Of a stretch of DNA of 34,516 nucleotides, positions 10,530 to 31,119 are shown one piece after another. How positions within the stretch are numbered: the first letter of the stretch is position 1; each line of letters begins with the position of its first letter. This DNA is from Aulosira sp. ZfuVER01 (GTDB taxonomy: Bacteria > Cyanobacteriota > Cyanobacteriia > Cyanobacteriales > Nostocaceae): the NCBI GenBank assembly GCA_034530615.2, contig JAVRCV020000035.1, forward strand, positions 1-34,516, given 5' to 3'. The notes beneath the pieces are model-generated. The model ran no database searches. It was not told the origin of the DNA and saw nothing but the letters and a program-made list of their open reading frames with translations. The position numbers and the translations under genes are program-made.

Positions 10530-10555
10530 TACTATAACTTGATTGATTTACCGTA
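10530..10555 (-). promoter_or_regulatory. Putative operator TAC-N20-GTA, copy 1
   Basis: Minus strand TACGGTAAATCAATCAAGTTATAGTA, upstream of the methyltransferase-monooxygenase operon. Confidence 0.75.
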
Positions 10556-10703
10556 TTTTGTTCTTAACAAAGCTTTTCACACTTACAAACAAAATGCAAG
10601 TCCTGCTTAACACAAGTTTGCCAAGAGATTTTTCATCAAAATCTATTTTAAGAGGGTTGTGTTTTTGCCTAAATTATGCAAATATCCAGAATTAAGAGTT
10701 AAC

Positions 10704-10729
10704 TACTAAAAACCGATAAAGTTTTAGGA
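10704..10729 (+). promoter_or_regulatory. Degenerate operator copy 2, upstream of porin
   Basis: TACTAAAAACCGATAAAGTTTTAGGA (TAC-N20-GGA) flanked by TTAAC...GTTAA. Confidence 0.45.
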
Positions 10730-10986
10730 GTTAATGACTGGCAGTCAATAATTAGGCTAATTCAAGTTCTTAAAAGAGCATTATGCTATGTTGCACCTCT
10801 GTTATCTTGTGCATAATCTTTTAATACGATTTAGCCGTTGCAAAAGCTGTTTGTCAAAAACCTCTATAAGGCAGTTTATCTGAGAAATATTTGTCTTCAA
10901 AACTAAGTGCGATCGGGACGTAAAAATCCTGTGGGGTGTTAGCAATTTCAAGATTTGTTGATTTTCAGTGCATAACTCGATAACCA

Positions 10987-12762
10987 ATGTTTAAAGTTTT
11001 GTGGAATTCAGGGCTAGTTAGTCCAGCCCTTTTTAATGTATTTTTTATCCTGTCTTCAGCCGCACTTGCTGAAGCATCGGACTTACCCAGGCTAAAATCA
11101 GGGATTGAGGAAATTTCCCCAATTATTACAACTCAGCCTAAATCGAATCAAACTGCCAACCCAGAAGTAACCGAAACGCCAGACTATTTACGATCCCCAG
11201 AAGGAAGTCTACTTTCCGAGGAGACTTTAACAGATGAAGATAACTCCCTAGATCAAGTTAATTCGGTTTCGCAATTATCTGATGTTCAGCCTACAGATTG
11301 GGCATTTCAAGCATTGCAATCTTTAGTGGAACGCTATGGTGCGATCGCGGGTTATAAAGATGGTACATTCAAAGGGAATCGCGCTCTTACGCGCTATGAA
11401 TTTGCGGCTGGCTTAAATACTGCTTTAGACCGAATCAATCAAATAATCGCCAGTTCTACAGCAGACTTAGTTAAAAAAGAAGACTTAGACACAATTAACA
11501 AGCTAAGAGAGGAATTTTCCACAGAATTAGCTGCACTACGAGGAAGAGTTGATGCAGCAGACGCAAAACTGGGAGTCATTGAAGCACAACAATTTTCGAC
11601 TACAGTTAAACTCACAGGTCGAGTCCAGATTGTCCTAGGTTCACTTCTAGCCGGTAATAATGTTCTCACTGGGAAGCCAGCACCCCGCGTAACCACACTC
11701 CAAGATTCAGTCTCCTTGCGATTGAATGCCAGCTTTACAGGTAAAGATTCACTAGGCATCTCAATGGGAGGTGGAAGTATTCAATCATTGGGACAAACAA
11801 GAGCTGGATTATTGGGTACTTTTGATGGCAGAACTGCTGATAACGCCAATGTTACAAGACCAGCCAATGATTGGTCTATTACTGGTCTGCGTTATCGGTT
11901 TCCATTAGGTTCAAATACCCAAGTCAACATTTACGCCTTATCTGATGGAGCTAATGAACTAGGTTTTACAGTACCAATTAATCCATACTTTGAAAGTACT
12001 CTAACAGGCGGTGCTAATGGGATTTCCCGATTCTCACGACGAGCTTTAGTCTATCAATATGGAGATACTGGTGGTGGAATAGCGGTACTCCACAAATTAA
12101 ATGACCAGTTTCAAATAGGATTAGCTTACAGCGCACCTAATGCTAATAACCCTGGACAGAATAATGGCTTCTTAGAAGGCAGATATTTAGCTTTAGGTCA
12201 GATACTATATACCAGTCCTAAGAAGAATTTTCGCGCGGCTCTAGCTTACGTCAATACTTACAGTCCACCAAACGCCCAAGGTCTAAGTGGTACCAACTTT
12301 GGGCCAGCCGCCGGCAGCAACTTGGTTAATAGCACCGTGGCTGGAACCGGAACGGTAGCTAATCTTTATGGTTTACAAGCTTTTTATCAATTTAGTCCCA
12401 GGTTTGCTATCAATGGTTGGGTAAGTTATGGTGCACACCGCTATTTAGGACGTGGCGATGGCAGCGCTATGGATTGGGCGGTAGGACTTGCTTTCCCAGA
12501 TCTTGGAAAGAAAGGAAGTTTAGGAGGATTGTTTGTGGGTATGTCACCAAAACTTACCCGTCTCAGCCAGGGTGTAAATTTAGGAGCGGGCTTAGGACAA
12601 GCAGACAAAGATACCTCCTTGCATATTGAAGGATTCTATCAATATAGAATCACCGATAAGATTGACATTACGCCGGGTTTTATCTGGGTGACTGCACCAG
12701 ATTCAAACGCCAACAACCCTGATAGCTTATTTGCATGGATTCGTACTGTCTATAGGTTTTAG
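10987..12762 (+). CDS. Cyanobacterial outer-membrane porin, SLH + OprB-type barrel (SomA/'iron uptake porin' family)
   Basis: SVSQLSDVQPTDWAFQALQSLVERYG SLH region, QFSTT.KL.G, HIEGFYQYRI.D.I.ITPG, C-terminal Phe. Confidence 0.93.
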   Translation: MFKVLWNSGLVSPALFNVFFILSSAALAEASDLPRLKSGIEEISPIITTQPKSNQTANPEVTETPDYLRSPEGSLLSEETLTDEDNSLDQVNSVSQLSDVQPTDWAFQALQSLVERYGAIAGYKDGTFKGNRALTRYEFAAGLNTALDRINQIIASSTADLVKKEDLDTINKLREEFSTELAALRGRVDAADAKLGVIEAQQFSTTVKLTGRVQIVLGSLLAGNNVLTGKPAPRVTTLQDSVSLRLNASFTGKDSLGISMGGGSIQSLGQTRAGLLGTFDGRTADNANVTRPANDWSITGLRYRFPLGSNTQVNIYALSDGANELGFTVPINPYFESTLTGGANGISRFSRRALVYQYGDTGGGIAVLHKLNDQFQIGLAYSAPNANNPGQNNGFLEGRYLALGQILYTSPKKNFRAALAYVNTYSPPNAQGLSGTNFGPAAGSNLVNSTVAGTGTVANLYGLQAFYQFSPRFAINGWVSYGAHRYLGRGDGSAMDWAVGLAFPDLGKKGSLGGLFVGMSPKLTRLSQGVNLGAGLGQADKDTSLHIEGFYQYRITDKIDITPGFIWVTAPDSNANNPDSLFAWIRTVYRF

Positions 12763-12811
12763 GGACGATCTCGATAGATATGGAGTGAGATTCTCTGTCG
12801 TTAACCTACCA

Positions 12812-12877
12812 GGTGTTGCTGAATGATAGGACGATTTCGCCCAATTTGAAACGAATTCCCCGCATTTATGCAACGCC
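12812..12877. repeat. Small element with terminal inverted repeats (MITE/REP-like)
   Basis: GGTGTTGC...GCAACGCC ends in the intergenic region after the porin. Confidence 0.45.
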
Positions 12878-13000
12878 ACGCACCATTATTTCAGGACTGA
12901 TAGTGCTTCATGGACTATCGTCCTAACGTGTCCTGCAAATTGGAAATTTTTTGAATAGCCTGCTTTTATCACCCAAGACTGCACTGCTTGACCTCCTGCC

Positions 13001-13086
13001 ACGCCACTTGCTACCCTGCGGGAAGCCGCTGGCATCTACAAGCCGGGAAACCCTTCCTGTGCAACTATCCTCCGCAACGCAGGGCT
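13001..13086. repeat. Nested small dispersed repeat
   Basis: ACGCCACTTGCTAC[CCTGCGGGAAGCCGCTGGCATCTAC]AAGCCGGGAAACCC...CAACGCAG; the insert is bounded by a CTAC direct repeat and its core recurs inverted at 30380-30392. Confidence 0.55.
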
Positions 13087-13141
13087 GCTTCTGCCTTATT
13101 TTCCACTTAGCTAAAGCTTCTTAAATCTCTATATTTAGGGG

Positions 13142-13169
13142 TTGATTTTTACCTAATTTCGTGTAAAAT
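13142..13169 (+). promoter_or_regulatory. Putative sigma70-type promoter for ssuCB
   Basis: TTGATT-16 nt-TAAAAT, 13 nt before operator copy 3. Confidence 0.45.
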
Positions 13170-13182
13170 CTTGATCGTAAAC

Positions 13183-13208
13183 TACGGTAAGTTGATCGAT
13201 TTACAGTA
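13183..13208 (+). promoter_or_regulatory. Putative operator copy 3 (best palindrome)
   Basis: TACGGTAAGTTGATCGATTTACAGTA, 150 nt upstream of ssuC. Confidence 0.8.
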
Positions 13209-13358
13209 TTTTATAGAAGAGTACGCCAAACAATGATGTAACTTCTTTAGTTTATTCCTATGTATACCCGCGTAAAACTAAGATAAATCTCACATATTGA
13301 GTCCTATTGGCGAAATTACCGTCAATGAGAACTTTATAAAACAACTAACGAGTACCTC

Positions 13359-14180
13359 ATGACTACTACTCTCAATAGAATCAACAGCAATATATTTCCG
13401 AAAGCGTTACTACAAAGCCAACTAATTCAGAAGATAGTTCCTTGGATTGTACCTTTTACAGTAGTGGTACTATGGGAAATTGCTTCAAGAACAGGTTTAC
13501 TTTCAACCAGAATTTTACCTGCGCCAAGTAGCGTGGTTTTTACAGCATTTAGATTAGCCTCTACAGGAGAACTTTTTCAACATATAGGGATTAGTGCTGG
13601 ACGTGCATTATCCGGTTTTATAGTTGGTGGTAGTATTGGTTTTGCCTTGGGATTACTTAATGGTTTTTCCCCAGTCGCCGAAAAATTATTAGATAGTTCC
13701 TTACAAATGCTCCGTACAATCCCCAATTTGGCATTGATTCCTCTAGTAATTTTATGGTTTGGGATTGGCGATCAAGCTAGATTATTTCTAGTATCAATGG
13801 GGGTATTTTTTCCCATATACCTCAATACATTTCATGGGATTCGCAGCGTAGATCCTGGATTAATTGAAATGGGAAGAGTGTATGGTTTAAAAACTACAGA
13901 GCTTTTGTGGCAAATCATCTTCCCTGGCGCATTATCTTCGATTTTAGTTGGTGTGCGTTTTTCTTTGGGAATTATGTGGCTCACACTAATTGTGGCAGAA
14001 ACAATTGCTGCCGATTCAGGACTAGGTTACATGGCAATGAATGCCCGTGAGTTTATGCAAACTGACGTGGTAGTTTTAAGCATTTTTATCTATGCTTTGT
14101 TGGGTAAATTAGCAGATGCTACCGCTAGGGCTTTAGAAGCCAAATGTCTGGCGTGGCATCCTAATTATCAAAGTGCTTGA
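13359..14180 (+). CDS. ssuC: Aliphatic sulfonate ABC transporter permease
   Basis: RILPAPS, QMLRTIPNLALIPLVILWFGIG, LTLIVAETIAADSGLGYMAMNAREFMQTDVVV match SsuC. Confidence 0.93.
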   Translation: MTTTLNRINSNIFPKALLQSQLIQKIVPWIVPFTVVVLWEIASRTGLLSTRILPAPSSVVFTAFRLASTGELFQHIGISAGRALSGFIVGGSIGFALGLLNGFSPVAEKLLDSSLQMLRTIPNLALIPLVILWFGIGDQARLFLVSMGVFFPIYLNTFHGIRSVDPGLIEMGRVYGLKTTELLWQIIFPGALSSILVGVRFSLGIMWLTLIVAETIAADSGLGYMAMNAREFMQTDVVVLSIFIYALLGKLADATARALEAKCLAWHPNYQSA

Positions 14181-14227
14181 AGAAGGTAGAAAAAAATAAT
14201 CTTTACTTGAACTAGGAGAATATCTTA

Positions 14228-14998
14228 ATGATTGCTACGGAAAGAGGTACACATCTCAATATTTTGGATCTGACTAAGGCTTTTAATGGTAACAATGTTT
14301 TGAAGTCAGTCAATTTAGAAATAGCACCAGGGGAATTTGTCGCCATTGTGGGACGTAGTGGTTGCGGTAAAAGCACTTTACTACGTCTTGTTTCTGGGTT
14401 GGATAGACCAACTGCGGGGGGAATATTACTAGATGGAGAACCACTACGTAAACTGAGCCGTTCTGTAAGGGTGATGTTTCAAGATCCCCGATTGCTTGCA
14501 TGGAAGCGAGTGATTCAGAATGTGGGCTTGGGTTTGCAAAACAATTGGCGTGAAAGAGCGCAGTGGGCACTGGAACAAGTGGGATTGAAGGATAGAGCCA
14601 ATGAGTGGCCATCTATACTTTCTGGTGGACAAAGACAACGGGTGTCTCTAGCCAGAGCATTAGTAAGCCAACCACGTTTATTGCTGCTTGATGAACCTCT
14701 GGGCGCTTTGGATGCTTTAACTCGCATAGATATGCAGGGATTGATTGAACGGTTATGGCAAGAACAGGGTTTTACTTCCCTGTTGGTAACTCATGATGTG
14801 GAAGAAGCTGTAGCGTTAGCAGACAGAGTAATTTTGATTGAAGAGGGTAGGATTGCTCTTGATGTACGTGTAGATCTTCCTCGTCCACGCGATCGCGCTA
14901 GTGAAGTCTTTGTTAATATCCGGGAAACTGTTCTTGAGCGCGTTATGCATCGTGAAGTTGCTCACTCCAGTCATCAGTTATTGGAATTACATCGTTGA
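14228..14998 (+). CDS. ssuB: Aliphatic sulfonate ABC transporter ATP-binding protein
   Basis: [58 protein letters not shown]; follows ssuC. Confidence 0.92.
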
Positions 14999-18644: not shown

Positions 18645-18745
18645 TTTATCTAAGTTTTAGATATTCTTAAATTTATAAATACATATATTTTGTTTGCTAA
18701 GTGCTTGTGCTGTAACTAGGGCTGTGTAATAATACTAAATTAATC

Positions 18746-18771
18746 TACGATAACTTGGTAGACAAATAGTA
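18746..18771 (+). promoter_or_regulatory. Putative operator copy 4
   Basis: TACGATAACTTGGTAGACAAATAGTA, just downstream of TTGTGC-17 nt-AATAAT (18705-18733). Confidence 0.7.
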
Positions 18772-18936
18772 TTTTTAGCAAAAGTACTGCATAGACAGAG
18801 CAATCAGTTGAGATTAGCAACGCGAATACAGTAATAACACTCTGGTTGATATCGGGTTTTGAGTCTTGATTTTTGCTTGGTCGTCGTTGACGACTTGTAA
18901 AAATCAACGAGTCATATTAGCTATGGAGACGTAATC

Positions 18937-20424
18937 ATGACAATTGCAATTGAACGTCCTACGAAAAAGTCTCGTTCTGCACAGATTCGGGAGCAACTAG
19001 GTTATCCCATCATTGATACCGATGTGCATACCCAGGAATTTGAACCAGCTTTTCTGGACTATTTAGCTGAAGTAGGCGGCGCTAAACTTGCAGATAGTTT
19101 CCGAGATCATTTGCCTGGTGCTGGGCGATATCGTTGGTTCCAGCAAACACCGGAAGAACGTCATACTTACCGCACAGCTCGTCCTCCCTTTTGGGGTCGT
19201 CCCACAAAAGATACTCTAAACCTTGCTACTGTTAGCTTACCGAAGCTACTGCATGAACGTTTGCAAGAAGCTGGGACAGATTTTGCTGTACTGTATCCCA
19301 ACTTAGCAACCCTAGCACCGCAAATTAAAAACGAAGAAATGCGTCGGGCGGTTTGTCGTGCAGCCAACCTCTACCATGCAGATATATTCAGGCCATACTC
19401 AGATCGGCTAACTCCCATAGCTACTATTCCTCTGCACACACCAGAAGAAGGAATAGAAGAATTGGAATATGCAGTCAAAGAATTAGGATTGAAAGCAATT
19501 CAAATTCCTGGTTATGTGACTCGTGTGATTCCTGGCTTCGAGAAATATCCCGAAGAAGTGCAACGAGAAGCTACTTGGATTGATAACTTTGCTTTAGATA
19601 GTGCCTACGATTACGATCCTTTCTGGGCGAAGTGCGTAGAACTCAAAGTTGTCCCCACCACCCACGCTTCTGGTATGGGTTGGACATCGCGTCGTTCGAT
19701 TTCCAACTACCAATATAATCACATTGGACACTTTGCCTCGGCTGCGGAAGCTTTCTGTAAAGCACTATTCTTTGGTGGTGTTACTTATCGTTTCCCGACT
19801 CTAAGATTTGCTTTTCTAGAGGGTGGTTCGGCTTGGGGTGCTAGCCTCTATACAGATCTGATTTGGCATTGGGAAACTCGTAACCCAGAGATTTTACAGA
19901 ACAATCATCCTGGTAATGTGAATCGGGAAGAATTGCGGGAATTATTTGTGCGTTATGGTGGTAAAGAATTCCGCGATCGCTTTGATGAAATTGGTAGTGG
20001 CTTAGGTTTCCACGGCAAATACTTTGCACCTGAAGATCCTGGTGAATTGAACGAATTTGCGGCGGCGGGAATTACTAAAGCAGAAGATGTGCGCGATCGC
20101 TTCCTCAATCATTTCTACTTTGGTACAGAATCAGACGATCTCCGTGTGGCTTATGCCTTCCATCAAAAAGCCAATCCTTATGGAGACAGAGTAAAAGCCT
20201 TCTTGGGTTCTGATTCTGGTCACTGGGATGTACCTGACATTACAGCTGTTACCTCCAACGCTTACAGCATGGTAGAACGCGGTATTCTCAGCGAAGAAGA
20301 CTTGCGATATTTCCTCTCAATTCATCCTTTGGAATTGTATACAAGCCTGAATCGGGACTTCTTTAAAGGTACAGCAATTGAAAAAGAAGCAGAAGAGTAT
20401 TTAGCAAGCAATACTCGCGCTTAA
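18937..20424 (+). CDS. Amidohydrolase family protein, paralog B
   Basis: GYPIIDTDVHT, YDYDPFWAK, LEGG, GSDSGHWDVPD; collinear with 6283-7821; GGAGA RBS. Confidence 0.88.
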   Translation: MTIAIERPTKKSRSAQIREQLGYPIIDTDVHTQEFEPAFLDYLAEVGGAKLADSFRDHLPGAGRYRWFQQTPEERHTYRTARPPFWGRPTKDTLNLATVSLPKLLHERLQEAGTDFAVLYPNLATLAPQIKNEEMRRAVCRAANLYHADIFRPYSDRLTPIATIPLHTPEEGIEELEYAVKELGLKAIQIPGYVTRVIPGFEKYPEEVQREATWIDNFALDSAYDYDPFWAKCVELKVVPTTHASGMGWTSRRSISNYQYNHIGHFASAAEAFCKALFFGGVTYRFPTLRFAFLEGGSAWGASLYTDLIWHWETRNPEILQNNHPGNVNREELRELFVRYGGKEFRDRFDEIGSGLGFHGKYFAPEDPGELNEFAAAGITKAEDVRDRFLNHFYFGTESDDLRVAYAFHQKANPYGDRVKAFLGSDSGHWDVPDITAVTSNAYSMVERGILSEEDLRYFLSIHPLELYTSLNRDFFKGTAIEKEAEEYLASNTRA

Positions 20425-20672: not shown

Positions 20673-21722
20673 ATGAACATTGGATTTAAACAAACAAAAA
20701 TTAATATATTCCAGAAATTTTCATTCTTGCTTTTACCTGGATTATTAGCTATTTCGACAACGTTAATTAGCTGCTCAGTTGACACACCAACTACAGAAAA
20801 TAAATCAAAAAGCTTTACAGCAAAAACTATCCGTTTGGGATATCAAAGTGCTGGAGACCTAGTTAAACTAAGAGGAGGCATAGAAAAGCGTCTGCAACCC
20901 TTAGGTGTTTCCGTTGAATGGGCACAATTTGCAGCAGGCCCACAATTAATGGAAGCGATGAATGTAGGTAGAGTTGATATTGGCTCTGTTGGCGAAACTC
21001 CTCCTATATTTGCTCAAGCCGCTGGGACATCTTTAGTTTATATTGCTAGTAGACAACCGGGGACAGGCGAAAGTAGCGGTATTGTAGTTCAACAAAATTC
21101 ACCAATTAAAACTTTGGCTGACCTTAAGGGTAAAAAGATAGTTTTTCAAAAAGGTTCAGCTTCCCATTACTTATTAGTTAAAGCTTTAGAAGAAGCAGGT
21201 TTGAAATATAATGATATTCAAGCTCTAAGTATGCCCCCATCCGAAGCGCGTGGTGCTTTTATTCAAGGGCGAATTGATGCTTGGGTAACGTGGGACCCTC
21301 ATTTAGCTTTAGCACAGAAAGCAGCCAATGCTAGAGTCTTGAGAAATGCTAGTGGTATCGCTACGCAAGGTGGATATTACATGGCTTCACGTCAGTTTGC
21401 TATAGAAAATCCAGAATTGGTGCGATTAGTGCTGGAAGAGGTAGATAAGGTAGAGAAATGGGCTGAACAAAACCAATCTGAAGTTGTCAAAATAACCACT
21501 CCTCAACTCAAAATTGATGAAGATATCGTCAAAGAAATGATTAAAAGACGAAGCTACGGCTTAAGAGCAATTACTCCAGAAATTATGGCAGGACAACAAC
21601 AAATAGCAGATTTATTCGCCCAGGAAAAAGTAATTCCTAAACCAATTGATGTAAAAGAAGCAATGCTGACTACTGAGCAATATGCAGCTATTACACCTAA
21701 AACCATAATTAGCCAGAAATAA
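20673..21722 (+). CDS. ssuA: Aliphatic sulfonate ABC transporter substrate-binding lipoprotein (SsuA family), second copy
   Basis: Lipobox LISC; FAAGPQLMEAMNVG, GETPPIFAQAAG, QKGSASHYLL, DAWVTWDP. Confidence 0.87.
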   Translation: MNIGFKQTKINIFQKFSFLLLPGLLAISTTLISCSVDTPTTENKSKSFTAKTIRLGYQSAGDLVKLRGGIEKRLQPLGVSVEWAQFAAGPQLMEAMNVGRVDIGSVGETPPIFAQAAGTSLVYIASRQPGTGESSGIVVQQNSPIKTLADLKGKKIVFQKGSASHYLLVKALEEAGLKYNDIQALSMPPSEARGAFIQGRIDAWVTWDPHLALAQKAANARVLRNASGIATQGGYYMASRQFAIENPELVRLVLEEVDKVEKWAEQNQSEVVKITTPQLKIDEDIVKEMIKRRSYGLRAITPEIMAGQQQIADLFAQEKVIPKPIDVKEAMLTTEQYAAITPKTIISQK

Positions 21723-21828
21723 TAAATTTCTGTTAATAGCCAACGCTCAATAGTTTTGGTACTTCAGACTATGGACTTTGCATTATTGACTTTGTAACCT
21801 TTTTTGAACAATTCAAGGATTTTTATTT

Positions 21829-22437
21829 ATGGTCAAAACTTATTCAACAATGCTGCCTCTTGGTACTTTAGCACCTGATTTTCAGTTACCAGATGTAGTT
21901 TCAGGTAAAAGTGTTTCACTCTCAGATTTTGCTAACAAAAAAGCTTTGTTAGTTATATTTCTGAGTCGTCATTGTCCCTTTGTACAACACATCAAATTTG
22001 AGTTAGCAAAACTGGGTCAGGACTATACACAAAGTACAAATGGTAGTCTGGGGATTGTGGCAATTAGTGCTAATGATGTCACTACCCATGCTGACGATTC
22101 ACCGGAATCTTTAAAAGCTTTTGCACAAGAGTTAGATTTAGCTTATCCTTTGCTTTTTGACGAAACTCAGAAAACAGCGGAGAACTTTTTTGCTGCTTGT
22201 ACTCCTGACTTTTTTCTATTTGATGCTAGCAGAAGACTTGTTTATCGGGGACAACTAGACGATAGCCGTCCGCAAAGCGGAATACCTGTAACTGGAAAAG
22301 ACTTGCGGGCTGCAATTAATACTGTATTGATAGGTCAGGCTGTGACTTGGCAACAAAAACCTAGTATTGGTTGTAATATCAAGTGGAAGCCAGGTAATGA
22401 ACCTGTTTATTTCAAAAATCCAGCGATCGCAGTTTGA
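21829..22437 (+). CDS. Thioredoxin-fold AhpC/TSA (PRX-like) protein
   Basis: APDFQLPD, HCPFV, AISAND, ACTPDFF, YRGQLDDSRP, SIGCNIKW. Confidence 0.88.
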   Translation: MVKTYSTMLPLGTLAPDFQLPDVVSGKSVSLSDFANKKALLVIFLSRHCPFVQHIKFELAKLGQDYTQSTNGSLGIVAISANDVTTHADDSPESLKAFAQELDLAYPLLFDETQKTAENFFAACTPDFFLFDASRRLVYRGQLDDSRPQSGIPVTGKDLRAAINTVLIGQAVTWQQKPSIGCNIKWKPGNEPVYFKNPAIAV

Positions 22438-22598
22438 TTAGTATAGTTTCTTAATCAAAAGACTGCTGTAATTTAAGCCATTTTCAATTACTATGAAGAG
22501 TGCTGAGATAAAAGCTCATCTACAAAAGGTAAGTAGCTCTGACTTCACTCAGCACAGGCTAAAGCAAGAAAATTCAGCAATCATTTGAGGGAATTACT

Positions 22599-23402
22599 AT
22601 GCCCGTTCCCGAACCACAAAGAGGCTTTTTAGAGCAGATTATTTCTCAGTTAAAAAGAGATGATCGCTTGCTTGGTGTAGCCATTGGTGGTTCATATTTG
22701 AGTGGGCAAATGGATGAGTATTCCGACCTCGATTTAATTATTGTTGTAGCTGATGCTCATTATCAACAGGTATTGCATGAGCGAAAGCTGTTTGCTAATC
22801 AATTGGGTTCATTGCTAGCGGCTTTTACAGGCGAACACGTTGGTGAACCCCGATTATTAATTTGTTTATATGAAAATCCACTTTTACACGTTGATTTTAA
22901 ATTTTTGGTTTTAGAAGATTTTAAAATAGACCGGATAGAAAATCCTATTGTTCTATGGGAGCAAAATAATTTATTAACCTTAGCTATAAAAGAAAACCCA
23001 CGAACTTATCCACCTTTAGATTTACAGTGGATTGAAGACCGCTTTTGGGTTTGGGTACACTACGGCGCAACCAAATTAGGCAGAGGCGAACTCTTTGAAG
23101 CTATTGATTTTCTATCTTTTATTCGTGGACAAGTTCTCGCCCCATTAGCCAAAATTCAAGCTGGACTACTCCCTCGCGGTGTGAGGAATTTGGAAACAGA
23201 ACTTCCTCATTTGTTAGCAGATTTTCGTCAGACTATTCCGATGAAACACGATCGCCTTGAGATTGCCAAAGCGTTGCAACACAGCATTTATTTATATCGT
23301 CAGTTTCGAGAAGCGTCAAATAAACCAGAGTTGGTTGTAGATTCTTCAGCAGAAATGGCTTCTATGCAATATCTGCAAACAGTTATAGATGGTTTGAAAT
23401 AG
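22599..23402 (+). CDS. Nucleotidyltransferase-domain protein (Pol-beta superfamily)
   Basis: GGSY...MDEYSDLD catalytic motif and LHVD third carboxylate. Confidence 0.7.
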   Translation: MPVPEPQRGFLEQIISQLKRDDRLLGVAIGGSYLSGQMDEYSDLDLIIVVADAHYQQVLHERKLFANQLGSLLAAFTGEHVGEPRLLICLYENPLLHVDFKFLVLEDFKIDRIENPIVLWEQNNLLTLAIKENPRTYPPLDLQWIEDRFWVWVHYGATKLGRGELFEAIDFLSFIRGQVLAPLAKIQAGLLPRGVRNLETELPHLLADFRQTIPMKHDRLEIAKALQHSIYLYRQFREASNKPELVVDSSAEMASMQYLQTVIDGLK

Positions 23403-23432
23403 TCATGAGACTAGTAGAAAAAGGATAAATTT

Positions 23433-24182
23433 ATGCCAGGGAAATTAGAAGAAAAAGTAGCGATTATTACGGGAGCATCTTCGGGAATTGGTGAAGCTAC
23501 GGCTATAGCACTAGCCGCAGAAGGGGCAAAAGTAGTAATTGCAGCCAGAAGAGGCGATCGCCTGGAAGCATTAGCAAAACGTATCGAATCCAGTGGTGGT
23601 AAGGCATTACCCATTGTTACTGATATCACCGACGAAACCCAAGCCAACAATTTGATCCACAAAGCCAACGCAGAGTTAGGGCGAGTGGATATTTTAGTTA
23701 ATAACGCAGGTGTAGCGCTGACAGGTAATATTGATGGCGGCAACACTTCAGACTGGCGGCGAATGTTTGATGTCAATGTCTTTGGATTGCTTTATACTAC
23801 TCATGCCGTCCTACCAATTTTCAAAGCCCAAGGTGTCGGACATATAGTTAATATCTCATCAGTAGCAGGTCGCATAGCGCGTGCAGGTATTGGTATATAC
23901 AACGCAACTAAATGGGGTGTAAACGCTATTTCCGAATCTTTACGGCAAGAAGTTTTAAAAGATAACATCCGCGTCACCATCATCGAACCTGGTTTGGTAG
24001 AGACAGAAATTAATAATCATACTACCGACCCTGTAGCAAAAAAAATTAGTGAAGAACGAATAAGAGCGATCGCACCACTGCAAAGTGAGGATATTGCCAG
24101 GGCGATCGCTTATGCTGTAACTCAGCCACCCCATGTTAATGTGAATGAAATTCTGATTCGACCAACCCAGCAAGAACGGTAA
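23433..24182 (+). CDS. SDR family oxidoreductase
   Basis: TGASSGIG, ARRGDRL, LVNNAG, NISS, YNATK. Confidence 0.93.
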   Translation: MPGKLEEKVAIITGASSGIGEATAIALAAEGAKVVIAARRGDRLEALAKRIESSGGKALPIVTDITDETQANNLIHKANAELGRVDILVNNAGVALTGNIDGGNTSDWRRMFDVNVFGLLYTTHAVLPIFKAQGVGHIVNISSVAGRIARAGIGIYNATKWGVNAISESLRQEVLKDNIRVTIIEPGLVETEINNHTTDPVAKKISEERIRAIAPLQSEDIARAIAYAVTQPPHVNVNEILIRPTQQER

Positions 24183-24541
24183 TGAAAGAAAATAGCATCA
24201 TCACTGGTTTTCATGCTCATATCTACTACGATACCGAAACTCGTGACATTGCTGGCCGTATCCGCGAAGGATTAGAAGCTAGATTTGAAGTACGGCTGGG
24301 ACGCTGGCACGATCAGTCCATTGGCCCCCATCCAAAATCTATGTATCAAGTTGCCTTTGCGCCAAACCAATTTACGCAAGTCGTCCCTTGGTTAATGCTC
24401 AACCGTGAGGGATTAGATATTCTCGTCCATCCAGAAACAGGCGATGATGTCACAGACCATACAGCATACGCTCTGTGGCTAGGAAATAAGCTAGATTTAA
24501 ACATCGGTTTCCTACAACGAATCAGACCTAACGCTTCCTAA
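24182..24541 (+). CDS. DOPA 4,5-dioxygenase family protein
   Basis: FHAHIYY, IGPHP, LVHPETG...DHT..ALWLG; start overlaps the SDR stop (TAATG). Confidence 0.88.
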   Translation: MKENSIITGFHAHIYYDTETRDIAGRIREGLEARFEVRLGRWHDQSIGPHPKSMYQVAFAPNQFTQVVPWLMLNREGLDILVHPETGDDVTDHTAYALWLGNKLDLNIGFLQRIRPNAS

Positions 24542-25206
24542 TTACGCTTGCGTGCTAAAGTCAGTCCATCTGCGATCGCAATCAAACTCAAGTCTATGCG
24601 ATCGTCTTGAGATAGCTTACTGTTGAACTCACGAATAGCTAAAGTAGAGGAGTCTTCTATTTCCGGCTGAATCACTCTTCCAGACCACAGCACATTATCA
24701 ATAGCAATCAAACCACCAGGTCGCACCAACTTTAATGCCAGTTCGTAATAACGATAATAGTTTTCCTTATCAGCATCAATAAAAGCAAAGTCAAAAGTTT
24801 CTGCATGACCTTGTGTTAAAAGATACTCTAAAGTCTCTGTTCCTGGAGCCAGCCGCAAGTCAATTTTATCAGCCACACCTGCTTTCTCCCAGTAGCGACG
24901 AGCAACAGATGTAAACTCTTCACTCACATCACAGGCAATAATCTGACCATCAGGCGGTAATGCTAAAGCAACACTCAAAGAACTATAACCAGTGAAAACG
25001 CCTACTTCCAAAGTTTTCTTTGCACCAATTAGCTTGATCAAGAGTGCCAAAAACTGTCCTTGTTCCGGCGCAATTTGCATATTTGCGCGAGGATGGTGAG
25101 CAGTTTCTTGTCGTAACTGCAAAAGTACTTCTGGCTCGCGTAGTGATACAGACAAAAGATACTCGTACAAATTAGTTGTCAGATTTAGTGTTTTCCCAGT
25201 AGACAT
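24538..25206 (-). CDS. O-methyltransferase (caffeoyl-CoA OMT-like)
   Basis: LEVGVFTGYS, FDFAFIDADKENY, IDNVLWSG, DGLTLA. Confidence 0.93.
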   Translation of the reverse strand: MSTGKTLNLTTNLYEYLLSVSLREPEVLLQLRQETAHHPRANMQIAPEQGQFLALLIKLIGAKKTLEVGVFTGYSSLSVALALPPDGQIIACDVSEEFTSVARRYWEKAGVADKIDLRLAPGTETLEYLLTQGHAETFDFAFIDADKENYYRYYELALKLVRPGGLIAIDNVLWSGRVIQPEIEDSSTLAIREFNSKLSQDDRIDLSLIAIADGLTLARKRN

Positions 25207-25315: not shown

Positions 25316-25340
25316 TACCTATATGAATATTCTAACAAAA

Positions 25341-25366
25341 TACGGTAAATTGCCCGACTTTATGTA
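25341..25366. promoter_or_regulatory. Putative operator copy 5
   Basis: TACGGTAAATTGCCCGACTTTATGTA in the divergent OMT/GST region. Confidence 0.7.
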
Positions 25367-25607
25367 GTATTGCTTTTACTTATAGCTTGAATCTCAGTAT
25401 GTTAACCAAGTATTACCTATCCGATTTATATAGATTGTGTTGTTCATCTTGAGATTTGTTAAGGTTTCTGGCATCTTCATCTAGAATCAGGCTTTGAGTA
25501 CATTATGGGATCTCTTTGTTGACAAGCCTAATTCTGTCTAGATATTTATTTAGTTATGCTAATAGTTAGGTATACATATTTTCAGAAAGACTGTATGATA
25601 TCTAAAC

Positions 25608-25633
25608 TACGTTAAATCGACCGATAAAGCGTA
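25608..25633 (+). promoter_or_regulatory. Putative operator copy 6
   Basis: TACGTTAAATCGACCGATAAAGCGTA, 8 nt after -10-like TATGAT (25594-25599), upstream of the GST operon. Confidence 0.72.
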
Positions 25634-25779
25634 ATATATCATCTAACAGACGTAGATACTTACTAGTCAAATTATTTAACTGCACTAATCAACACATCTT
25701 GCCTCTGCCTTATTTCTCTGGTTTGAGTTGTGCAATCTCAAATAGTCTGCATTCACGATAATTCCAAGGAAAGGATTTT

Positions 25780-26451
25780 ATGAGCAACATACAACTGTAC
25801 TTTGCCAAAGCTTCTACCTTCTCTCAACGTACTCGTGTAGTTTTGCTAGAAAAAGGTATTGACTTTACCCCAATAGAAATTGATTTACAGAACAAACCAG
25901 ATGGGTACACACAGATTTCCCACTATGGCAAAGTTCCGGCTATTCAACATGGGGATGCGATCGTCTATGAATCTGCCATTATTAATGAATATCTAGAAGA
26001 AGTGTTCCCCGAACCGGCGTTATTACCCCGCGATCCGGCAAAAAAAGCGATCGCTCGCATTTGGATAGACTACGCCAATACTCGCTTTGTCCCAGCTTTT
26101 AACAAATTTCTCCGTGGTAAAGATAGCGAAGAACAAGAACAGGGAAGAAAAGAGTTCACAGAAGCACTTCTATATATTGAACAAGAAGGATTAGGCAAAG
26201 GTGATTACTTGTTAGGAGATCGGTTTAGCCTAGTTGATATCAGCTTCTATCCCTGGTTTGAACGTTTACCACTATTAGAACACTTCCGTAAATTCGCACT
26301 ACCAACAGAAACACCTCGTTTGCAGACATGGTGGAATTTGGTAAGCGATCGCTCCTCAATTCAGACAGTAGCAAATCCTGTGGACTTCTATTTACAAAGA
26401 TTCGCCAAAATTCTTGGTGAACCGATTCCCGTTGGTGCAGCGCAAAAATAA
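25780..26451 (+). CDS. Glutathione S-transferase family protein
   Basis: [28 protein letters not shown]-capping box. Confidence 0.92.
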
Positions 26452-26536
26452 GACACAAGGGTGTGGTGATGGGAGTGAATCATTAACTGTTGAGTATTGA
26501 CCAACAATTAACCAAAATCCAAAATGGGATGTTTTT

Positions 26537-27409
26537 ATGAGCTTAAATAACCAAGTTCTAGACAGACCGATTTCGCAAGAACTGCCATACGTAAAGGCTA
26601 ACCTCAGTTACCTAATTCCAATGGCAGAAAAACCAGTTAACTATACCTACGAACCACCCACCGGGATTCCTTGCACAAATGGAACTTATCAGACGCATAA
26701 ACTCCCCATCTACAACGCTCGTTCTATCTCAGAGAACATCTCGTTGGATAAAGAAGGTTTTGCGTTTACTGAACATCGCACCAGCGTCCGCAACTTTTAT
26801 GACGAAGACGAAGTACGCCGTGTTTATTACCCAGAAGCCGAGCAATTATTAAAAGAGGTGACAGGCGGAACTAAGGTAGTAATCTTCGACCATACCCTAC
26901 GTAACGCTGCTCAATCAAAGCCGGGTGAGAATAACATTAAAGAACCTGCCAAGCGCGTACACAACGACTTTACTGCCAAATCTGGCTATACTCGCGCCCG
27001 TTTGGAACTAACAGCACGAGGGATAGATGATAACGAAATTGAGTCACTATTACAACAACGGTTTGCCATAGTTAATGTTTGGCGCGCGATCGCTCAACCA
27101 ATCCAAGAGTCACCATTAGCATTGTGTGACGCGCAAAGTATTGCATCAACAGACCTTGTATCAGGCGATCTTGTGTACCGCGATCGCGTCGGTGAGACAT
27201 ACGCAGTCACGTATAACCCCGAACATAAATGGTTCTACTTCCCACAAATGCACCCAGACGAGGCACTATTTATCAAATGCTTCGACTCCGCAGAAGATGG
27301 ACGCGCCCGTTTTGCAGCCCATACAGCCTTTGAAGACCCCACTAGCCCAGCCGATGCTCCCCCACGAGAAAGCATTGAACTCAGGACATTCGTCTTTTAC
27401 CCCGCATAG
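26537..27409 (+). CDS. CmcJ/NvfI/AsaB-family putative Fe(II)/2-oxoglutarate oxygenase
   Basis: FDHTLR, VHND (HxD), NVWR, PLALCD, HTAF, RESIELR. Confidence 0.8.
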   Translation: MSLNNQVLDRPISQELPYVKANLSYLIPMAEKPVNYTYEPPTGIPCTNGTYQTHKLPIYNARSISENISLDKEGFAFTEHRTSVRNFYDEDEVRRVYYPEAEQLLKEVTGGTKVVIFDHTLRNAAQSKPGENNIKEPAKRVHNDFTAKSGYTRARLELTARGIDDNEIESLLQQRFAIVNVWRAIAQPIQESPLALCDAQSIASTDLVSGDLVYRDRVGETYAVTYNPEHKWFYFPQMHPDEALFIKCFDSAEDGRARFAAHTAFEDPTSPADAPPRESIELRTFVFYPA

Positions 27410-27477
27410 ATTTCTCCATCTCTCACTCTTTGCGCCTCTGCGTGAGAAAAATCCACATTTAACCTAGAGTAAACCCC

Positions 27478-28392
27478 ATGACTTCCCAACATTTTGATAT
27501 CAAACCAATAGCCGGACGTATCGGTGCAAAAATCATCGGTCTTAACCTAAACAGTAACCTCAGCGACGAAATCATCAGCGATATCCGTAAAGCTCTAGTT
27601 AAATACAAAGTCATCTTCTTCCGGGAGCAGAACCTTGATGCTCAAGGACAAGTAGCCTTCGCCCGTCGCTTCGGAGAAGTCACCACAGCTCATCCCACCG
27701 TCCCATCACTTCCAGACAACCCAGAAATTCTGGATCTAGATTACGGCAAGACTGTCAGCCGCGCTAACAACTGGCACACCGATGTCACATTTGTAGATCG
27801 TCCCCCGCTTGGTTCGATTTTGCGGGCACTTGTCATCCCACCATCAGGAGGTGACACTATTTGGGCAAACTCGGTGACTGCATACGAAGATTTACCAGAG
27901 CCTCTACGTAATCTCGCAGACCAACTTTGGGCAATACACAGCAACGCCTATGATTATGCAGCAGCGGCAATTGACTTACCACAAGAAGTTTTAGCACATC
28001 GGGCTGTTTTCACCTCGACTTTATACGAAACTCTGCATCCAGTTGTCCGCATCCATCCTGAATCTGGTGAACGAGGATTATTTATTGGTGGTTTTGTGCG
28101 GCGTCTGCGTGGATTATCACAAAATGAATCCGATGAAATCATCAAATTGTTGCAGGCTTACATAACTCGTCCCGAAAATACAGTCCGGTGGCGTTGGAAA
28201 GTTGGCGATGTAGCTTTCTGGGATAATCGCGCTACTCAACATTATGCGATCGCAGACTACGGAAACCAACCTCGTCATGTTCAGAGAGTGACTATTGTTG
28301 GCGATATTCCCGTTGGTATTGATGGTAAACAAAGTGAAGCCATCAAGGGAGATTCTTCTGCATATAACCGACGTGAACCTGCTTTAGTTTAG
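27478..28392 (+). CDS. tauD: TauD/TfdA family dioxygenase (taurine dioxygenase or alkylsulfatase AtsK-like)
   Basis: WHTDVTF, GGDTIWA, HPVVRIHPESGE, WDNRATQHYA. Confidence 0.88.
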   Translation: MTSQHFDIKPIAGRIGAKIIGLNLNSNLSDEIISDIRKALVKYKVIFFREQNLDAQGQVAFARRFGEVTTAHPTVPSLPDNPEILDLDYGKTVSRANNWHTDVTFVDRPPLGSILRALVIPPSGGDTIWANSVTAYEDLPEPLRNLADQLWAIHSNAYDYAAAAIDLPQEVLAHRAVFTSTLYETLHPVVRIHPESGERGLFIGGFVRRLRGLSQNESDEIIKLLQAYITRPENTVRWRWKVGDVAFWDNRATQHYAIADYGNQPRHVQRVTIVGDIPVGIDGKQSEAIKGDSSAYNRREPALV

Positions 28393-28410
28393 AAAAAGGT
28401 TTTTATCTTA

Positions 28411-29484
28411 GTGTCTTTGTGGTTACAGATTTTTGACCACAAAGACACTAAGCATTTACCAGACAGCAGAAAAAACAGTGGTTTTAGCAATACAATCGGG
28501 TTGTCCTTTAGAAACCTTTTTAGCAAGTTGGGCATTCTGACGGTTCTTCTATCCGCTTTTGTCTTATCATTTCACAACGTTACTGTGCGAGTTTTGTTTT
28601 CAGAACATCTCGTACTGGGTTTATTTTTACTTGGTGGATACGTTAAACCGGATTTGCAAAATTCATTATTGCTGATGTTCATGCGAATGCTACTGGTGGT
28701 TCCACTTATGGCATCTCTAGCATTCAAGTTATATCCATCTGCTGGAAAAGAATTACGAGATTTGTTCAGGCGGGAACGCACTGATGTTTTGCTCCAAGCA
28801 TTGTGCTGTGGAGTATTGATGTTTGTGTATATTGCGTTACTCTACATTGCTCTTGGCTTAATTCCTACAGGAATTGCCATGACTCTATTTTTTACCTATC
28901 CCGTGTTTACGACGCTGCTTGCTTGGAAGTTTTTTGGCGAACGTCCAACACTCTTCCGTTGGCTGGTGATGGCGATTATTCTGGGGGGTGGGGTACTCAC
29001 AATTCCTCAATCTTCTGCTGCTTACAGTAGTGATACCATTACTAATGGCATTTTCGCCAGCGTTGGATCTGGAGTTGTTTACGCCTTTTATAAGGTCATG
29101 GCCCAAAAATGTTTGGAAAAATTCCATCCAGTTCCTTTCACCTGGATTAGTTTTACCTGCACCTTAGTGTTTTCTGGTATTTGCTTACTGTTCTGGCCAC
29201 CTTCCAGTACCCAACTTGATTGGACACCTCTGTGGATTGGCAGTATTTTTTCTGGTTTAGTGAGTTTCATAGGGCACGCTTTCAATAATGTAGGAATTCG
29301 CATGATTGGCGCAACTAAGGCCTCAATCGTTGGTGCTAGCAGTCCAGCATTAACAGTATTAGTCGCATGGGTCACAATTAGCGAAACTTTAAACTTGATT
29401 CAATGCTTGGGAATTGGAATTGTCACATTAGGAATTGCAATGTTAAGTGGAGAAGGCTTTGTGCGTAGACGTAGCCATTCATAG
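28411..29484 (+). CDS. EamA/DMT family transporter
   Basis: ~10 TM helices, duplicated EamA pattern (IPTGIAMTLFFTYP; IGATKASIV...PALT); start uncertain. Confidence 0.85.
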   Translation: MSLWLQIFDHKDTKHLPDSRKNSGFSNTIGLSFRNLFSKLGILTVLLSAFVLSFHNVTVRVLFSEHLVLGLFLLGGYVKPDLQNSLLLMFMRMLLVVPLMASLAFKLYPSAGKELRDLFRRERTDVLLQALCCGVLMFVYIALLYIALGLIPTGIAMTLFFTYPVFTTLLAWKFFGERPTLFRWLVMAIILGGGVLTIPQSSAAYSSDTITNGIFASVGSGVVYAFYKVMAQKCLEKFHPVPFTWISFTCTLVFSGICLLFWPPSSTQLDWTPLWIGSIFSGLVSFIGHAFNNVGIRMIGATKASIVGASSPALTVLVAWVTISETLNLIQCLGIGIVTLGIAMLSGEGFVRRRSHS

Positions 29485-29506
29485 AAATGACATTTGGCTT
29501 TTCTAA

Positions 29507-29578: not shown

Positions 29579-29585
29579 TGTTATT

Positions 29586-30240
29586 ATGTCTATCTCCACT
29601 ATTTTGTTTGATCTAGATGGAACCTTGACAGATCCCAAGCTTGGCATTACTCGCTGTATTCAGTTTGCTTTATTGGAACTCGGTTATAAACCACCGGATG
29701 CCGATGAATTACATTGGTGTATTGGCCCTCCAATCAAAAACAGTTTTTCGCTATTACTGAAGACTTCAGATGACACAGTTTTAGAACAAGCAATTTCACT
29801 TTATCGCAGTCGCTTTGCCACGATAGATAGGATTATTTGAAAACTCGCTTTATCCCAAGATTTTAGAAACCTTAGAAGCTATTCGTTTTGCTGGTTATAA
29901 AACTTTTGTTGCGACTTCTAAACCACATATTTATGCTACGCAGATTGTTGAGCATTTTGGCTTGTCGTCGCTTTTCGATGGTGTTTACGGGAGTGAACTT
30001 GACGGCACGCGGAGTGTAAAAGCTGACTTGATTTCTCACATTTTGCTCACAGAAAAGCTTTTACCTTCTCATGCGGTTATGGTAGGCGATCGCTCTCACG
30101 ATATCATTGGAGCTAAACACAATAGCGTTACCGCCATTGGTGTTACCTACGGCTACGGAACTGAGGAAGAGTTAAAGACTCACAGTGCTGATTTGATTGC
30201 TCATACTCCAGATGAAATTCCCAAATTGCTTGTTCATTGA
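29586..30240 (+). pseudogene. Frameshifted HAD hydrolase (5'-nucleotidase/phosphoglycolate phosphatase-like)
   Basis: 5' part has FDLDGTLTD; 3' part in another frame has VATSKP and MVGDRSHDIIGA; removing the ATAG duplication at 29823-29830 restores a 216-aa ORF. Confidence 0.85.
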
Positions 30241-30338
30241 AGGAAAGCAGATAGCAGGAAGGAGGATATAGAAATTAGTTCCTTCCGTTGCCAATAAGTT
30301 ATCGAACCGCCTTTCATTTATGGCAGTTAGTAAACGCA

Positions 30339-30393
30339 GTCGTTCGACGTTCGACGAAGTCGTTCTCGAAGAGTAGTCGTTCCCGCAGGGTAC
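30339..30393. repeat. Cluster of small dispersed repeats between convergent genes
   Basis: CGTTCGA heptamer twice, then two 17-nt units GTCGTTCTCGAAGAGTA / GTCGTTCCCGCAGGGTA. Confidence 0.6.
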
Positions 30394-30411
30394 CACTCCT
30401 GTATCTTTTAT

Positions 30412-30906
30412 TTAGACAGATACAGCTACCTTGGCGTGCTTATTTACATAGTCTACAAACAAGGTTTTCAATCGCTGACTAACACTAGGATGTTCAAAAA
30501 CAGCAAAGCCTAAATTTCGCGCTTTTACTAGGGTTTGTTCTGGTGTCAATCCTTCTTCAATAGCAATACTTAATAATGCAATTCCTGTGGAACGCATAGC
30601 AGCTGCACAATGTATCACAGCGGGTTTAGGAAGTTCTTCTAATGTCTTGAGAATTTTGCTAATTAACTCTTCACTCAAATTTTCTAGCTTTAAAGGCACA
30701 TTGACGTAATTTAGTCCTAATGATTCAGCCACCTCTTGCTCATCATGGCGAAATCCTAGTTCATCAGGGGAACGCAAATTTAAAACTGACTTAAATCCTT
30801 CTTGAATGGCTTGCTCAAGTTGTTTTGGTATAACTTGTCCTGTTGTCGTTAAATTTTCGTTAATCCGAATACTGTTGATCACTTTTACTCCTTTAGACTT
30901 AAGCAC
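30412..30906 (-). CDS. DUF442/BLH-type phosphatase-fold protein (possible sulfurtransferase)
   Basis: GFKSVLNLRSPDE, GLNYVNVP, PAVIHCAAAMR (CX4R); start uncertain. Confidence 0.8.
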   Translation of the reverse strand: MLKSKGVKVINSIRINENLTTTGQVIPKQLEQAIQEGFKSVLNLRSPDELGFRHDEQEVAESLGLNYVNVPLKLENLSEELISKILKTLEELPKPAVIHCAAAMRSTGIALLSIAIEEGLTPEQTLVKARNLGFAVFEHPSVSQRLKTLFVDYVNKHAKVAVSV

Positions 30907-31052
30907 CAGGCTTGATAAACGCTTGTTTTAGCAAGCTTTGTCTAGCTATCTAAAATTTGCATGGCAAAATTTGCCAAACAAAAGCAGATATCCTGTGATT
31001 ACCTTTAAATTTGCTGGACAAAGCCATTTATTTGTTTGCTGTTTTTATAATA

Positions 31053-31078
31053 TACGGTTTATCTATAGACTTAGTGTA
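31053..31078. promoter_or_regulatory. Putative operator copy 7
   Basis: TACGGTTTATCTATAGACTTAGTGTA. Confidence 0.68.
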
Positions 31079-31093
31079 GTTAAGAGATATTTA

Positions 31094-31119
31094 TACATTT
31101 TTTCGATATGATTACCGTA
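31094..31119. promoter_or_regulatory. Putative operator copy 8 (tandem with copy 7)
   Basis: Minus strand TACGGTAATCATATCGAAAAAATGTA. Confidence 0.65.

Follow-up and report, generated by a model that had tools for sequence, protein, structure and literature searches.

Contig JAVRCV020000035.1 of Aulosira sp. ZfuVER01 (34,516 nt, the whole of which is referred to below as the window) raises the question of why one palindromic element recurs upstream of so many of its sulfur-related genes, and of which protein might read it. The original prediction, based on the letters of this stretch, described eight copies of a 26-bp TAC-N20-GTA operator, which it took for the signature of a sulfur-starvation regulon under the control of a dimeric repressor encoded elsewhere. 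We found that the eight sites are copies of an operator that heads about 50 sulfur-scavenging operons in this genome and is conserved across families of the Cyanobacteriales. We suggest that the likely reader of this operator is a dimeric repressor of the Rrf2 family, similar to CymR, whose gene lies outside the window (estimated probability about 0.65). The genome (8.03 Mb in 83 contigs, 41% G+C) is designated G000 and the window is its entire contig C35; other G numbers refer to sampled Cyanobacteriales genomes and C numbers to contigs.

All eight sites are present, at the positions and on the strands originally given, and seven of them match TAC-N20-GTA exactly. The remaining one (core starting at 10704) ends in GGA, as noted when it was called degenerate, but with a score of 26.7 bits it is a normal member of the group. 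A gap-free alignment of the sites revealed a 34-bp palindrome with the consensus AAACTACGGTAAaTcGATCgAtTTACCGTAGTTT, so that the recurrent element was confirmed, whereas the 26 bp first described are only its core. Information peaks at AA (positions 2-3), TAC (5-7) and TAA (10-12) and is low in the centre. The bare TAC-N20-GTA pattern is weak evidence, because it is only mildly enriched over shuffled sequence (12 matches in the window against a shuffle mean of 5.27, standard deviation 2.39; 2 of 100 shuffles reached 12). Simple IUPAC patterns separated real from reversed sequence poorly and were therefore replaced with a symmetric position weight matrix (PWM), refined on the genome with the reversed genome as the null, and with a sequence-only covariance model. 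With the PWM, 53 sites scored above 20 bits in the genome versus 3 in the reversed genome, and 42 versus 0 scored above 25 bits. The eight sites of the window score between 24.3 and 42.4 bits, and no further site above 18 bits was found there. Forty-nine of the 53 genomic sites fall outside called open reading frames (ORFs), which cover 82% of the 15 contigs concerned. By contig, sites above 20 bits number 15 on C56, 15 on C27, five on C54 and two each on C55, C47, C3 and C49. Those at C27:5988 and C55:102266 are identical 34-mers, both 571 bp from an SsuA-like gene, and this pair is either a recent duplication or the result of overlapping contig ends.

Elsewhere in the genome, the sites precede sulfate ABC transporter genes (sbpA/cysTWA, cysA), many SsuA paralogues, SsuD/SsuE-like genes, genes for TauD and NtaA/DmoA monooxygenases, a sulfatase and its maturase (FGE), TauE exporters, NIL-domain proteins, glutathione S-transferases (GSTs) and DUF442 proteins, and a cysK/cysE-like pair. 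This gene content indicates a sulfur-acquisition regulon, and the motif marks sulfur genes across the whole genome, including the matches that had been expected at sbp/cysTWA, cysK, ssuD and tauD. In the window, Pfam agrees with the genes that had been placed downstream of the sites (the monooxygenase operon, the porin, ssuCB, amidohydrolase-ssuA, O-methyltransferase (OMT)/GST-tauD and DUF442). The operator-bearing clusters on C27, C56 and C54 also encode proteins without an evident part in sulfur metabolism, namely a FosX-like hydrolase, GTP cyclohydrolase I, an SBP56 selenium-binding-protein homologue, PAP2 phosphatases, several CadD-like transporters and standalone NIL-domain proteins.

Conservation upstream of orthologous genes, which had been anticipated, was seen in other cyanobacterial families. 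In 80 Nostocales loci around orthologues of the C56 Rrf2 gene (920 kb), 234 sites exceeded 18 bits, versus 1 in the reversed sequence. The covariance model, built from 51 sites, was run on both strands (E<=1) over 61 genomes sampled from the Cyanobacteriales; it gave 99 matches in the Aulosira genome, 9-40 in about 18 of the 60 others, from many families, and 0-6 in most of the rest. Within the 800 bp upstream of sbpA orthologues in 34 genomes, a site of 19.9-33.7 bits was found in 23, a marginal one (14.6 bits) in 1, and the remaining 10 scored below 3 bits.

The layout at sbpA is the same in about 24 genomes: sigma-70-like -35 and -10 boxes, then 10-16 nt, then the 34-bp operator, with the Shine-Dalgarno sequence and ATG following within about 18 nt. 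The operators at sbpA (C54), cysA (C75) and several other genes of the Aulosira genome likewise abut the start codon. An operator that follows the -10 box and precedes the ribosome site cannot activate its downstream gene and is placed to block initiation or early elongation. To judge from this layout, the geometry at sbpA is that of a repressor site, which supports the predicted dimeric repressor; also as predicted, no regulator was found by Pfam among the window proteins. The original prediction had already placed -10-like hexamers upstream of three of the eight sites. Our consensus promoter scan of the window found a promoter pair directly upstream of two, TTGATT-16-TAAAAT at 13142-13169 (ending 9 nt before the operator at 13179) and TATACA-17-TATGAT at 25571-25599 (ending 4 nt before that at 25604), but the counts were not above those in shuffled sequence. 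The window alone would therefore not reveal the promoter placement.

Transcripts of sbpA and other genes would contain the element directly ahead of the ribosome site, and the palindrome might accordingly be read as a hairpin of RNA or DNA in the 5' leader (an attenuator, a riboregulator or the site of an RNA-binding protein), or else as a dispersed repeat with no regulatory meaning. We regard this as highly improbable. The arms pair at 65.6% of positions, versus 65.8% after shuffling, and covariation is 0.173 versus 0.171. The arms thus vary independently, and selection appears to act on the sequence of each half, as in the site of a dimeric protein and not in a hairpin. Moreover, the sites lie in both orientations in divergent promoter regions, and in many families they accompany genes of a single functional class.

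Three regulator genes outside the window carry the operator upstream. They encode an Rrf2 protein (P0001, on C56), a LysR-type protein (P0002, on C56) and a Crp/Fnr-family protein (P0003, on C49). If the LysR-type protein (C56:53291-54265) were a CysB/Cbl-like activator binding the sites, the system would resemble that of Escherichia coli, in which ssu and tau genes are under CysB and Cbl, and a site does lie 12 nt from the P0002 start; in G021 and G056, the orthologous genes have one 32-66 nt upstream. This explanation is nearly refuted by the distribution of P0002, orthologues of which (E<1e-100) occur in only 12 of the 60 other genomes and were not found in the motif-rich genomes G006, G051, G004, G013, G015, G053 and G017. 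In addition, the operator is not of the T-N11-A type characteristic of LysR proteins, and its position downstream of the -10 box argues against a LysR activator; we give this explanation almost no weight.

The Rrf2 reading accounts better for the distribution of the sites. P0001 is a member of the Rrf2 superfamily (Pfam PF02082, 110.9 bits with a cut-off of 30; TIGR00738, 107.4 bits with a cut-off of 73.3), and its gene is followed by cysK, with a cysE-like gene divergent from it. Two paralogues are encoded on C80 and C73 (118.6 and 121.3 bits to the Rrf2 model). Among the specific NCBIfam models, the CymR equivalog NF047409 was the best for P0001 (92.9 bits; IscR, 69.0 bits). The three-cysteine Fe-S ligand motif was not found, P0001 having one cysteine and its homologues 0-5, with no conserved triad. 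A C-terminal MYYI sequence ends 49 of 53 homologues in the sample of the order and all 80 Nostocales orthologues, and a cysK-like gene follows rrf2 in 4/4 of the conserved loci inspected and in 72 of the 80 Nostocales loci. The member common to these genomes is the slowly evolving C80 Rrf2, with the gene order oprB-rrf2-cysK (C80:1312-4844, L260; also G014, G038 and G043; 4/4 loci). This conserved order, together with the operator at the OprB porin gene of the window, suggests that the porin is part of sulfur control. The first 72 residues of the Rrf2 protein, which form its DNA-binding domain, are nearly invariant in 38 genomes, in agreement with the near constancy of the operator from family to family. 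P0001 and the C73 paralogue have a recognition helix and wing almost identical to those of the C80 protein.

Taking E<=1e-30 to P0001 as the threshold for a CymR-like Rrf2, such a protein was present in all of the sbpA-site genomes (23/23), and none of the 8 genomes lacking it had a site at sbpA. The covariance model gave matches with E<0.002 in 19 of 38 Rrf2-bearing genomes, and with E<0.02 in 0 of 22 genomes without Rrf2; in five of the latter, 5 of the 7 top matches lay inside ORFs and the other two had no gene beside them. Across all motif-bearing genomes examined, a CymR-like Rrf2 appears to be the only one of the candidates that is always present, in agreement with the Rrf2/CymR-like regulator proposed originally. 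Even in motif-poor genomes that have Rrf2 and no P0003-like Crp protein, sites were found at genes for gamma-glutamyl cyclotransferase (G047, 29.8 bits; G011, 17.3 bits), sulfite reductase (G003, 18.3 bits) and peroxiredoxin (G005, 23.0 bits). The C56 Rrf2 paralogue has the operator at a fixed place (centre at -15) in 74 of 80 loci, and the divergent Rrf2 paralogues of G019, G020, G036 and G046 also carry operators. Identity to the C80 protein showed only a trend with motif status, confounded with relatedness. When the C80 Rrf2 and its CysK were modelled together as a 1:1 complex from single sequences, the median score was 0.32 against a mark of 0.34, which speaks neither for nor against their association.

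Several observations weigh against assigning the operator to Rrf2. No operator was found within 1.5 kb of the conserved rrf2-cysK operon in the approximately 26 genomes inspected, and the main candidate thus shows no visible autoregulation. The same DNA-binding domain occurs in the Rrf2 of twelve genomes that have only 0-6 matches to the covariance model, two of these (G003 and G040) have no site at sbpA, and the sites that rescue the motif-poor Rrf2 genomes are only five, in four genomes. P0001, with its 92.9 bits, does not reach the NF047409 cut-off of 195. The Rrf2 tree (105 columns) is largely unresolved, with the motif-linked paralogues on long branches. As the compared genomes are related, all the genome counts overstate independence. 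The other points of this kind concern the Crp/Fnr-family protein P0003: its gene has a closely placed site in many genomes, it tracks the size of the regulon better than Rrf2 does, and the proteins of its clade share a conserved C terminus, xW(H/Y)Y(E/Q)I, in which the last residue is isoleucine, as in CysK-docking tails.

If P0003 (C49:263535-264125, or L013:4536-5126; true length 196 aa), a relative of CysR, read the operator, it would regulate its own gene and act on the regulon as a repressor or an activator. It has a Crp-type helix-turn-helix (PF13545, PF00325), PF00027 is listed for many of its 195-196-aa homologues, and its gene precedes those for cytochrome b561 and a Mo-oxidoreductase. 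In G000, G006, G036, G015, G051, G021 and G056, the P0003-type gene has a site about 22-36 nt ahead of its likely start codon, and in G025, G013 and G049 it has one within 150 nt. Of the 17 genomes with a P0003 homologue (E<=1e-54), 16 have a model match with E<0.002, versus 3 of the 43 others, and in G078 and G256 the Crp gene stands amid a sulfate/cysK/encapsulin cluster full of sites. CysR of Synechococcus elongatus is itself a Crp-family sulfur regulator, the regulon of which 'remains undefined' according to an excerpt of PMC11420160. P0003 was our first choice from the profiles, and was dropped after the sbpA test and the identification of motif-bearing genomes without a Crp protein of this type. 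It was not found in the motif-bearing genomes G014 (100% complete, best match 1e-19) and G038 (99%, best match 1e-15), which nevertheless have sites of 21-34 bits before sbpA, cysK, NIL, TauE and GGACT (gamma-glutamyl cyclotransferase) genes, nor, at 1e-30, in G003, G005 and G047, which have sites at sulfur genes. In G043, G009, G054 and G017, only paralogue-level Crp matches were obtained, ending at query residues 222-231 of 239, before the tail. A P0003-type protein that is missing from motif-bearing genomes cannot read the site there.

The shape of the element also speaks against a Crp-family reader. Crp-family sites are 14-22 bp long, unlike a palindrome of 26-34 bp with its strongest positions 11-16 bp from the centre, and a site just before the ribosome site cannot activate that gene. 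Over the stretch that aligns, the P0003 paralogues on C7 and C8 lack the xW(H/Y)Y(E/Q)I tail, and so does the gene in the CysR context of G065, which falls outside the P0003 group (95/94 support). We consider it quite unlikely that P0003 reads the operator. P0003 may instead be a second CysK-linked regulator inside the regulon, and both it and the LysR-type protein look like regulon members.

It is somewhat easier to imagine, but still unlikely, that another DNA-binding protein, encoded away from the sites, is the reader, and that the Rrf2, Crp and LysR genes are mere targets. The lack of an autoregulatory site at the conserved Rrf2 gene and the exceptions in both profile tests would fit such a protein, and the regulators examined were those next to sites. 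Against it, no DNA-binding domain was found by Pfam (E up to 0.5) in 16 small or family-less proteins encoded beside sites, and a CymR-like Rrf2 accounts for the distribution, the geometry and the sulfur logic with no further assumption.

A separate 25-bp palindrome of the IscR type, overlapping a TTGACA-like box, was observed upstream of an operon for ThrC-like (434 aa) and ThiS-like (91 aa) proteins at C29:21390-23300. As a possible alternative operator for the conserved Rrf2, it had about 2-3 related copies in the genome, none of which was at an rrf2 gene.

We therefore return to the CymR-like Rrf2 as the preferred reader and propose how it would work. In sulfur-replete cells, an Rrf2 dimer on the operator would block transcription, the common denominator being the product of the C80 oprB-rrf2-cysK locus. 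The repressor would need the cysteine synthase CysK as a partner, whose active site would hold the invariant MYYI end of the repressor. A shortage of sulfide would let O-acetylserine build up and displace this tail; the repressor would then be released, and transporters, oxygenases, sulfatases and cysteine genes would be switched on. More tentatively, and with distinctly less confidence than in the binding itself, we suggest that the near-invariant Rrf2 may act in cyanobacteria as a CymR-CysK-type master switch over a few to about 50 operons, gating a second tier of regulators within the regulon, namely the operator-bearing rrf2-cysK pair, the LysR protein and the Crp/Fnr protein with the xWHYEI tail. 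Every step of this switch beyond the existence of the operator and its position in the leader is inferred.

The operator copies and their likely targets in the window are listed in Table 1.

Table 1. Operator copies (34 bp, with the 26-bp core in parentheses) and likely target genes in the window; scores are from the PWM.
Feature	Position	Strand	Score, context or remarks
Operator copy	10526..10559 (core 10530-10555)		37.7 bits; divergent region between the methyltransferase/monooxygenase operon (-) and the OprB porin gene (+)
Operator copy	10700..10733 (core 10704-10729)		26.7 bits; OprB porin ORF 254 bp downstream
Operator copy	13179..13212 (core 13183-13208)		42.4 bits, best in the genome; ssuC ORF 147 bp downstream
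Operator copy	18742..18775 (core 18746-18771)		31.6 bits; amidohydrolase-SsuA-peroxiredoxin operon 162 bp downstream
Operator copy	25337..25370 (core 25341-25366)		29.5 bits; 131 bp from the O-methyltransferase gene (-)
Operator copy	25604..25637 (core 25608-25633)		29.9 bits; GST-unknown-TauD-EamA operon 143 bp downstream
Operator copy	31049..31082 (core 31053-31078)		30.6 bits; 143 bp from the DUF442/BLH-phosphatase-like gene (-)
Operator copy	31090..31123 (core 31094-31119)		24.3 bits; CadD-like transporter gene (+) 402 bp downstream
Methyltransferase, luciferase-like monooxygenase, amidohydrolase_2, hydrolase, aldo-keto reductase, GNAT, ABC exporter, SsuA-like binding protein	928..10221	-	Likely target string; operon limits not established
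OprB-family porin with SLH domain	10987..12762	+	Likely target (Pfam)
ssuC-like permease and ssuB-like ATPase	13359..14998	+	Likely target (Pfam)
Amidohydrolase_2, SsuA-like protein, AhpC/TSA peroxiredoxin, nucleotidyltransferase, SDR, DOPA-dioxygenase-like protein	18937..24541	+	Likely target string
Class I O-methyltransferase (Methyltransf_3)	24538..25206	-	Likely target
GST, unknown 290-aa protein, TauD-family dioxygenase, EamA transporter	25780..29484	+	Likely target string
DUF442/BLH-phosphatase-like protein (sulfur-transferase-type domain)	30412..30906	-	Likely target
CadD-family transporter	31525..32196	+	Likely target; paralogues in other clusters also carry sites

Two genes were found in pieces. 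In the window, a HAD-family hydrolase is split over the ORFs 29586-29840 (HAD_2 profile positions 1-73) and 29962-30240 (119-178), and is probably a frameshifted or decayed gene; the TauE exporter gene at C47:3059-3796 (L009) is also split into two ORFs. In G078, a SrpI-type encapsulin and its cysteine desulfurase cargo (C22, L210:12244-16187) are clustered with cysK, a cysE-like gene, the Crp gene and several operator-like sites, and the encapsulin system would therefore belong to the same regulon in that lineage.

The control of sulfur metabolism in cyanobacteria is poorly understood, and for CysR, its only named regulator, neither a site nor a regulon has been defined (PMC11420160). A full-text literature search, which did not cover RegPrecise or most subscription journals, yielded no published description of this motif, in keeping with the earlier view of it as uncharacterised, and no cyanobacterial CymR or Rrf2 sulfur regulator. 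A sharply defined operator allows the sulfur-starvation regulon to be read from any cyanobacterial genome; in Aulosira it exposes about 50 operons, of which many serve organosulfur scavenging and many have no known function. It points to a sensor mechanism hitherto described only in Firmicutes, in which O-acetylserine frees an Rrf2 tail from the active site of CysK. A Crp-family protein of the regulon, too, has a tail that may dock in CysK and, if this is true, two unrelated regulator families (Rrf2 and Crp/Fnr) would use the CysK active site as a sulfur sensor. A further possible use is as a tight sulfate-repressible promoter/operator for engineering.

Among known systems, the NtcA box also has GTA and TAC triplets in a palindrome, and P0003 belongs to the protein family of NtcA (NCBIfam NtcA model, E 3.6e-14). 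However, the operator described here is not an NtcA box, as had been recognised at the outset: GTA-N12-TAC is nested inside TAC-N20-GTA, against GTA-N8-TAC in the NtcA site, the element is 34 bp long, and it lies downstream of the -10 box, whereas NtcA sites are positioned at -41.5. The CysB and Cbl proteins of E. coli switch on the same kinds of genes (ssuABC/D/E, tauD, the sulfate ABC transporter) in sulfur limitation, but these LysR proteins are activators with long, loose sites upstream of the promoter, whereas here a sharp palindrome lies downstream of the -10 box and the LysR gene of the regulon is absent from many motif-bearing genomes.

CysR of S. elongatus PCC 7942 is, like P0003, which has its place in this regulon, a Crp/Fnr protein of a cyanobacterium, and acts on sulfur genes; the setting of its gene is described as 'cysR of the cys operon' in part of PMC12016511, and the sulfur genes of plasmid pANL depend on CysR according to the portion of PMC11420160 that deals with them. 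It differs in that P0003-type proteins were not found in several motif-bearing genomes. P0003 was not found to be orthologous to CysR: in G065, the Crp gene of the cys operon (cysA, then sbpA-cysT-NIL(81 aa)-crp-cysW), the product of which is 41% identical to P0003, groups outside P0003 and its paralogues (95/94). On pANL, weak motif-like matches (12-17 bits; null maximum 8) are confined to intergenic parts of the sulfur region, and G065 has one 21-bit match between cysA and sbpA, although the Nostoc-trained model is weak there (best E 0.056); the link of the motif to S. elongatus is suggestive only. The sulfur region of pANL (NC_004073, L201) also contains an Rrf2 gene (31582-32081), the product of which ends in MFYI, like S. 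aureus CymR, and a 16.6-bit motif-like match ends 31 nt before its annotated start (null maximum 8.0).

In the solved Rrf2-DNA complexes, according to an excerpt of PMC9338935, a dimer occupies an operator of 23-39 bp, the wings making contact at the extremes and no bases being contacted in the centre. The operator studied here is likewise most informative at its extremes and low in the centre, but IscR, NsrR and RsrR carry Fe-S clusters and use other operator sequences, and the IscR-type palindrome of the ThrC-like/ThiS-like operon is unrelated to the sulfur operator.

The closest counterpart is the CymR-CysK system of Bacillus subtilis and Staphylococcus aureus. CymR represses cysteine-pathway genes in complex with CysK (part of PMC2869319), and the tail of S. 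aureus CymR (...YMFYI) inserts into the CysK active site with a KD of 25 nM, in competition with O-acetylserine (as given in an excerpt of bioRxiv 10.1101/2024.09.19.614015). The cyanobacterial proteins share with it an Rrf2 fold lacking the Fe-S cysteines, a C-terminal M-(F/Y)-Y-I tail (MYYI here, MFYI in S. aureus), a cysK gene adjacent to rrf2, and a palindromic operator over sulfur-acquisition promoters; O-acetylserine sensing is here only predicted. They differ in belonging to another phylum and in not reaching the NF047409 equivalog level, in the presence of three Rrf2 paralogues in one genome, one of them inside the regulon, and in a far larger regulon, devoted mostly to organosulfur scavenging. 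In the cyanobacteria, the docking of the tail is a prediction from sequence, and so is the extent of the regulon. We therefore suggest that the operator copies of this contig likely form part of a circuit of the CymR-CysK type, here in a phylum new to it, which has an operator of its own and an organosulfur regulon of very large size.

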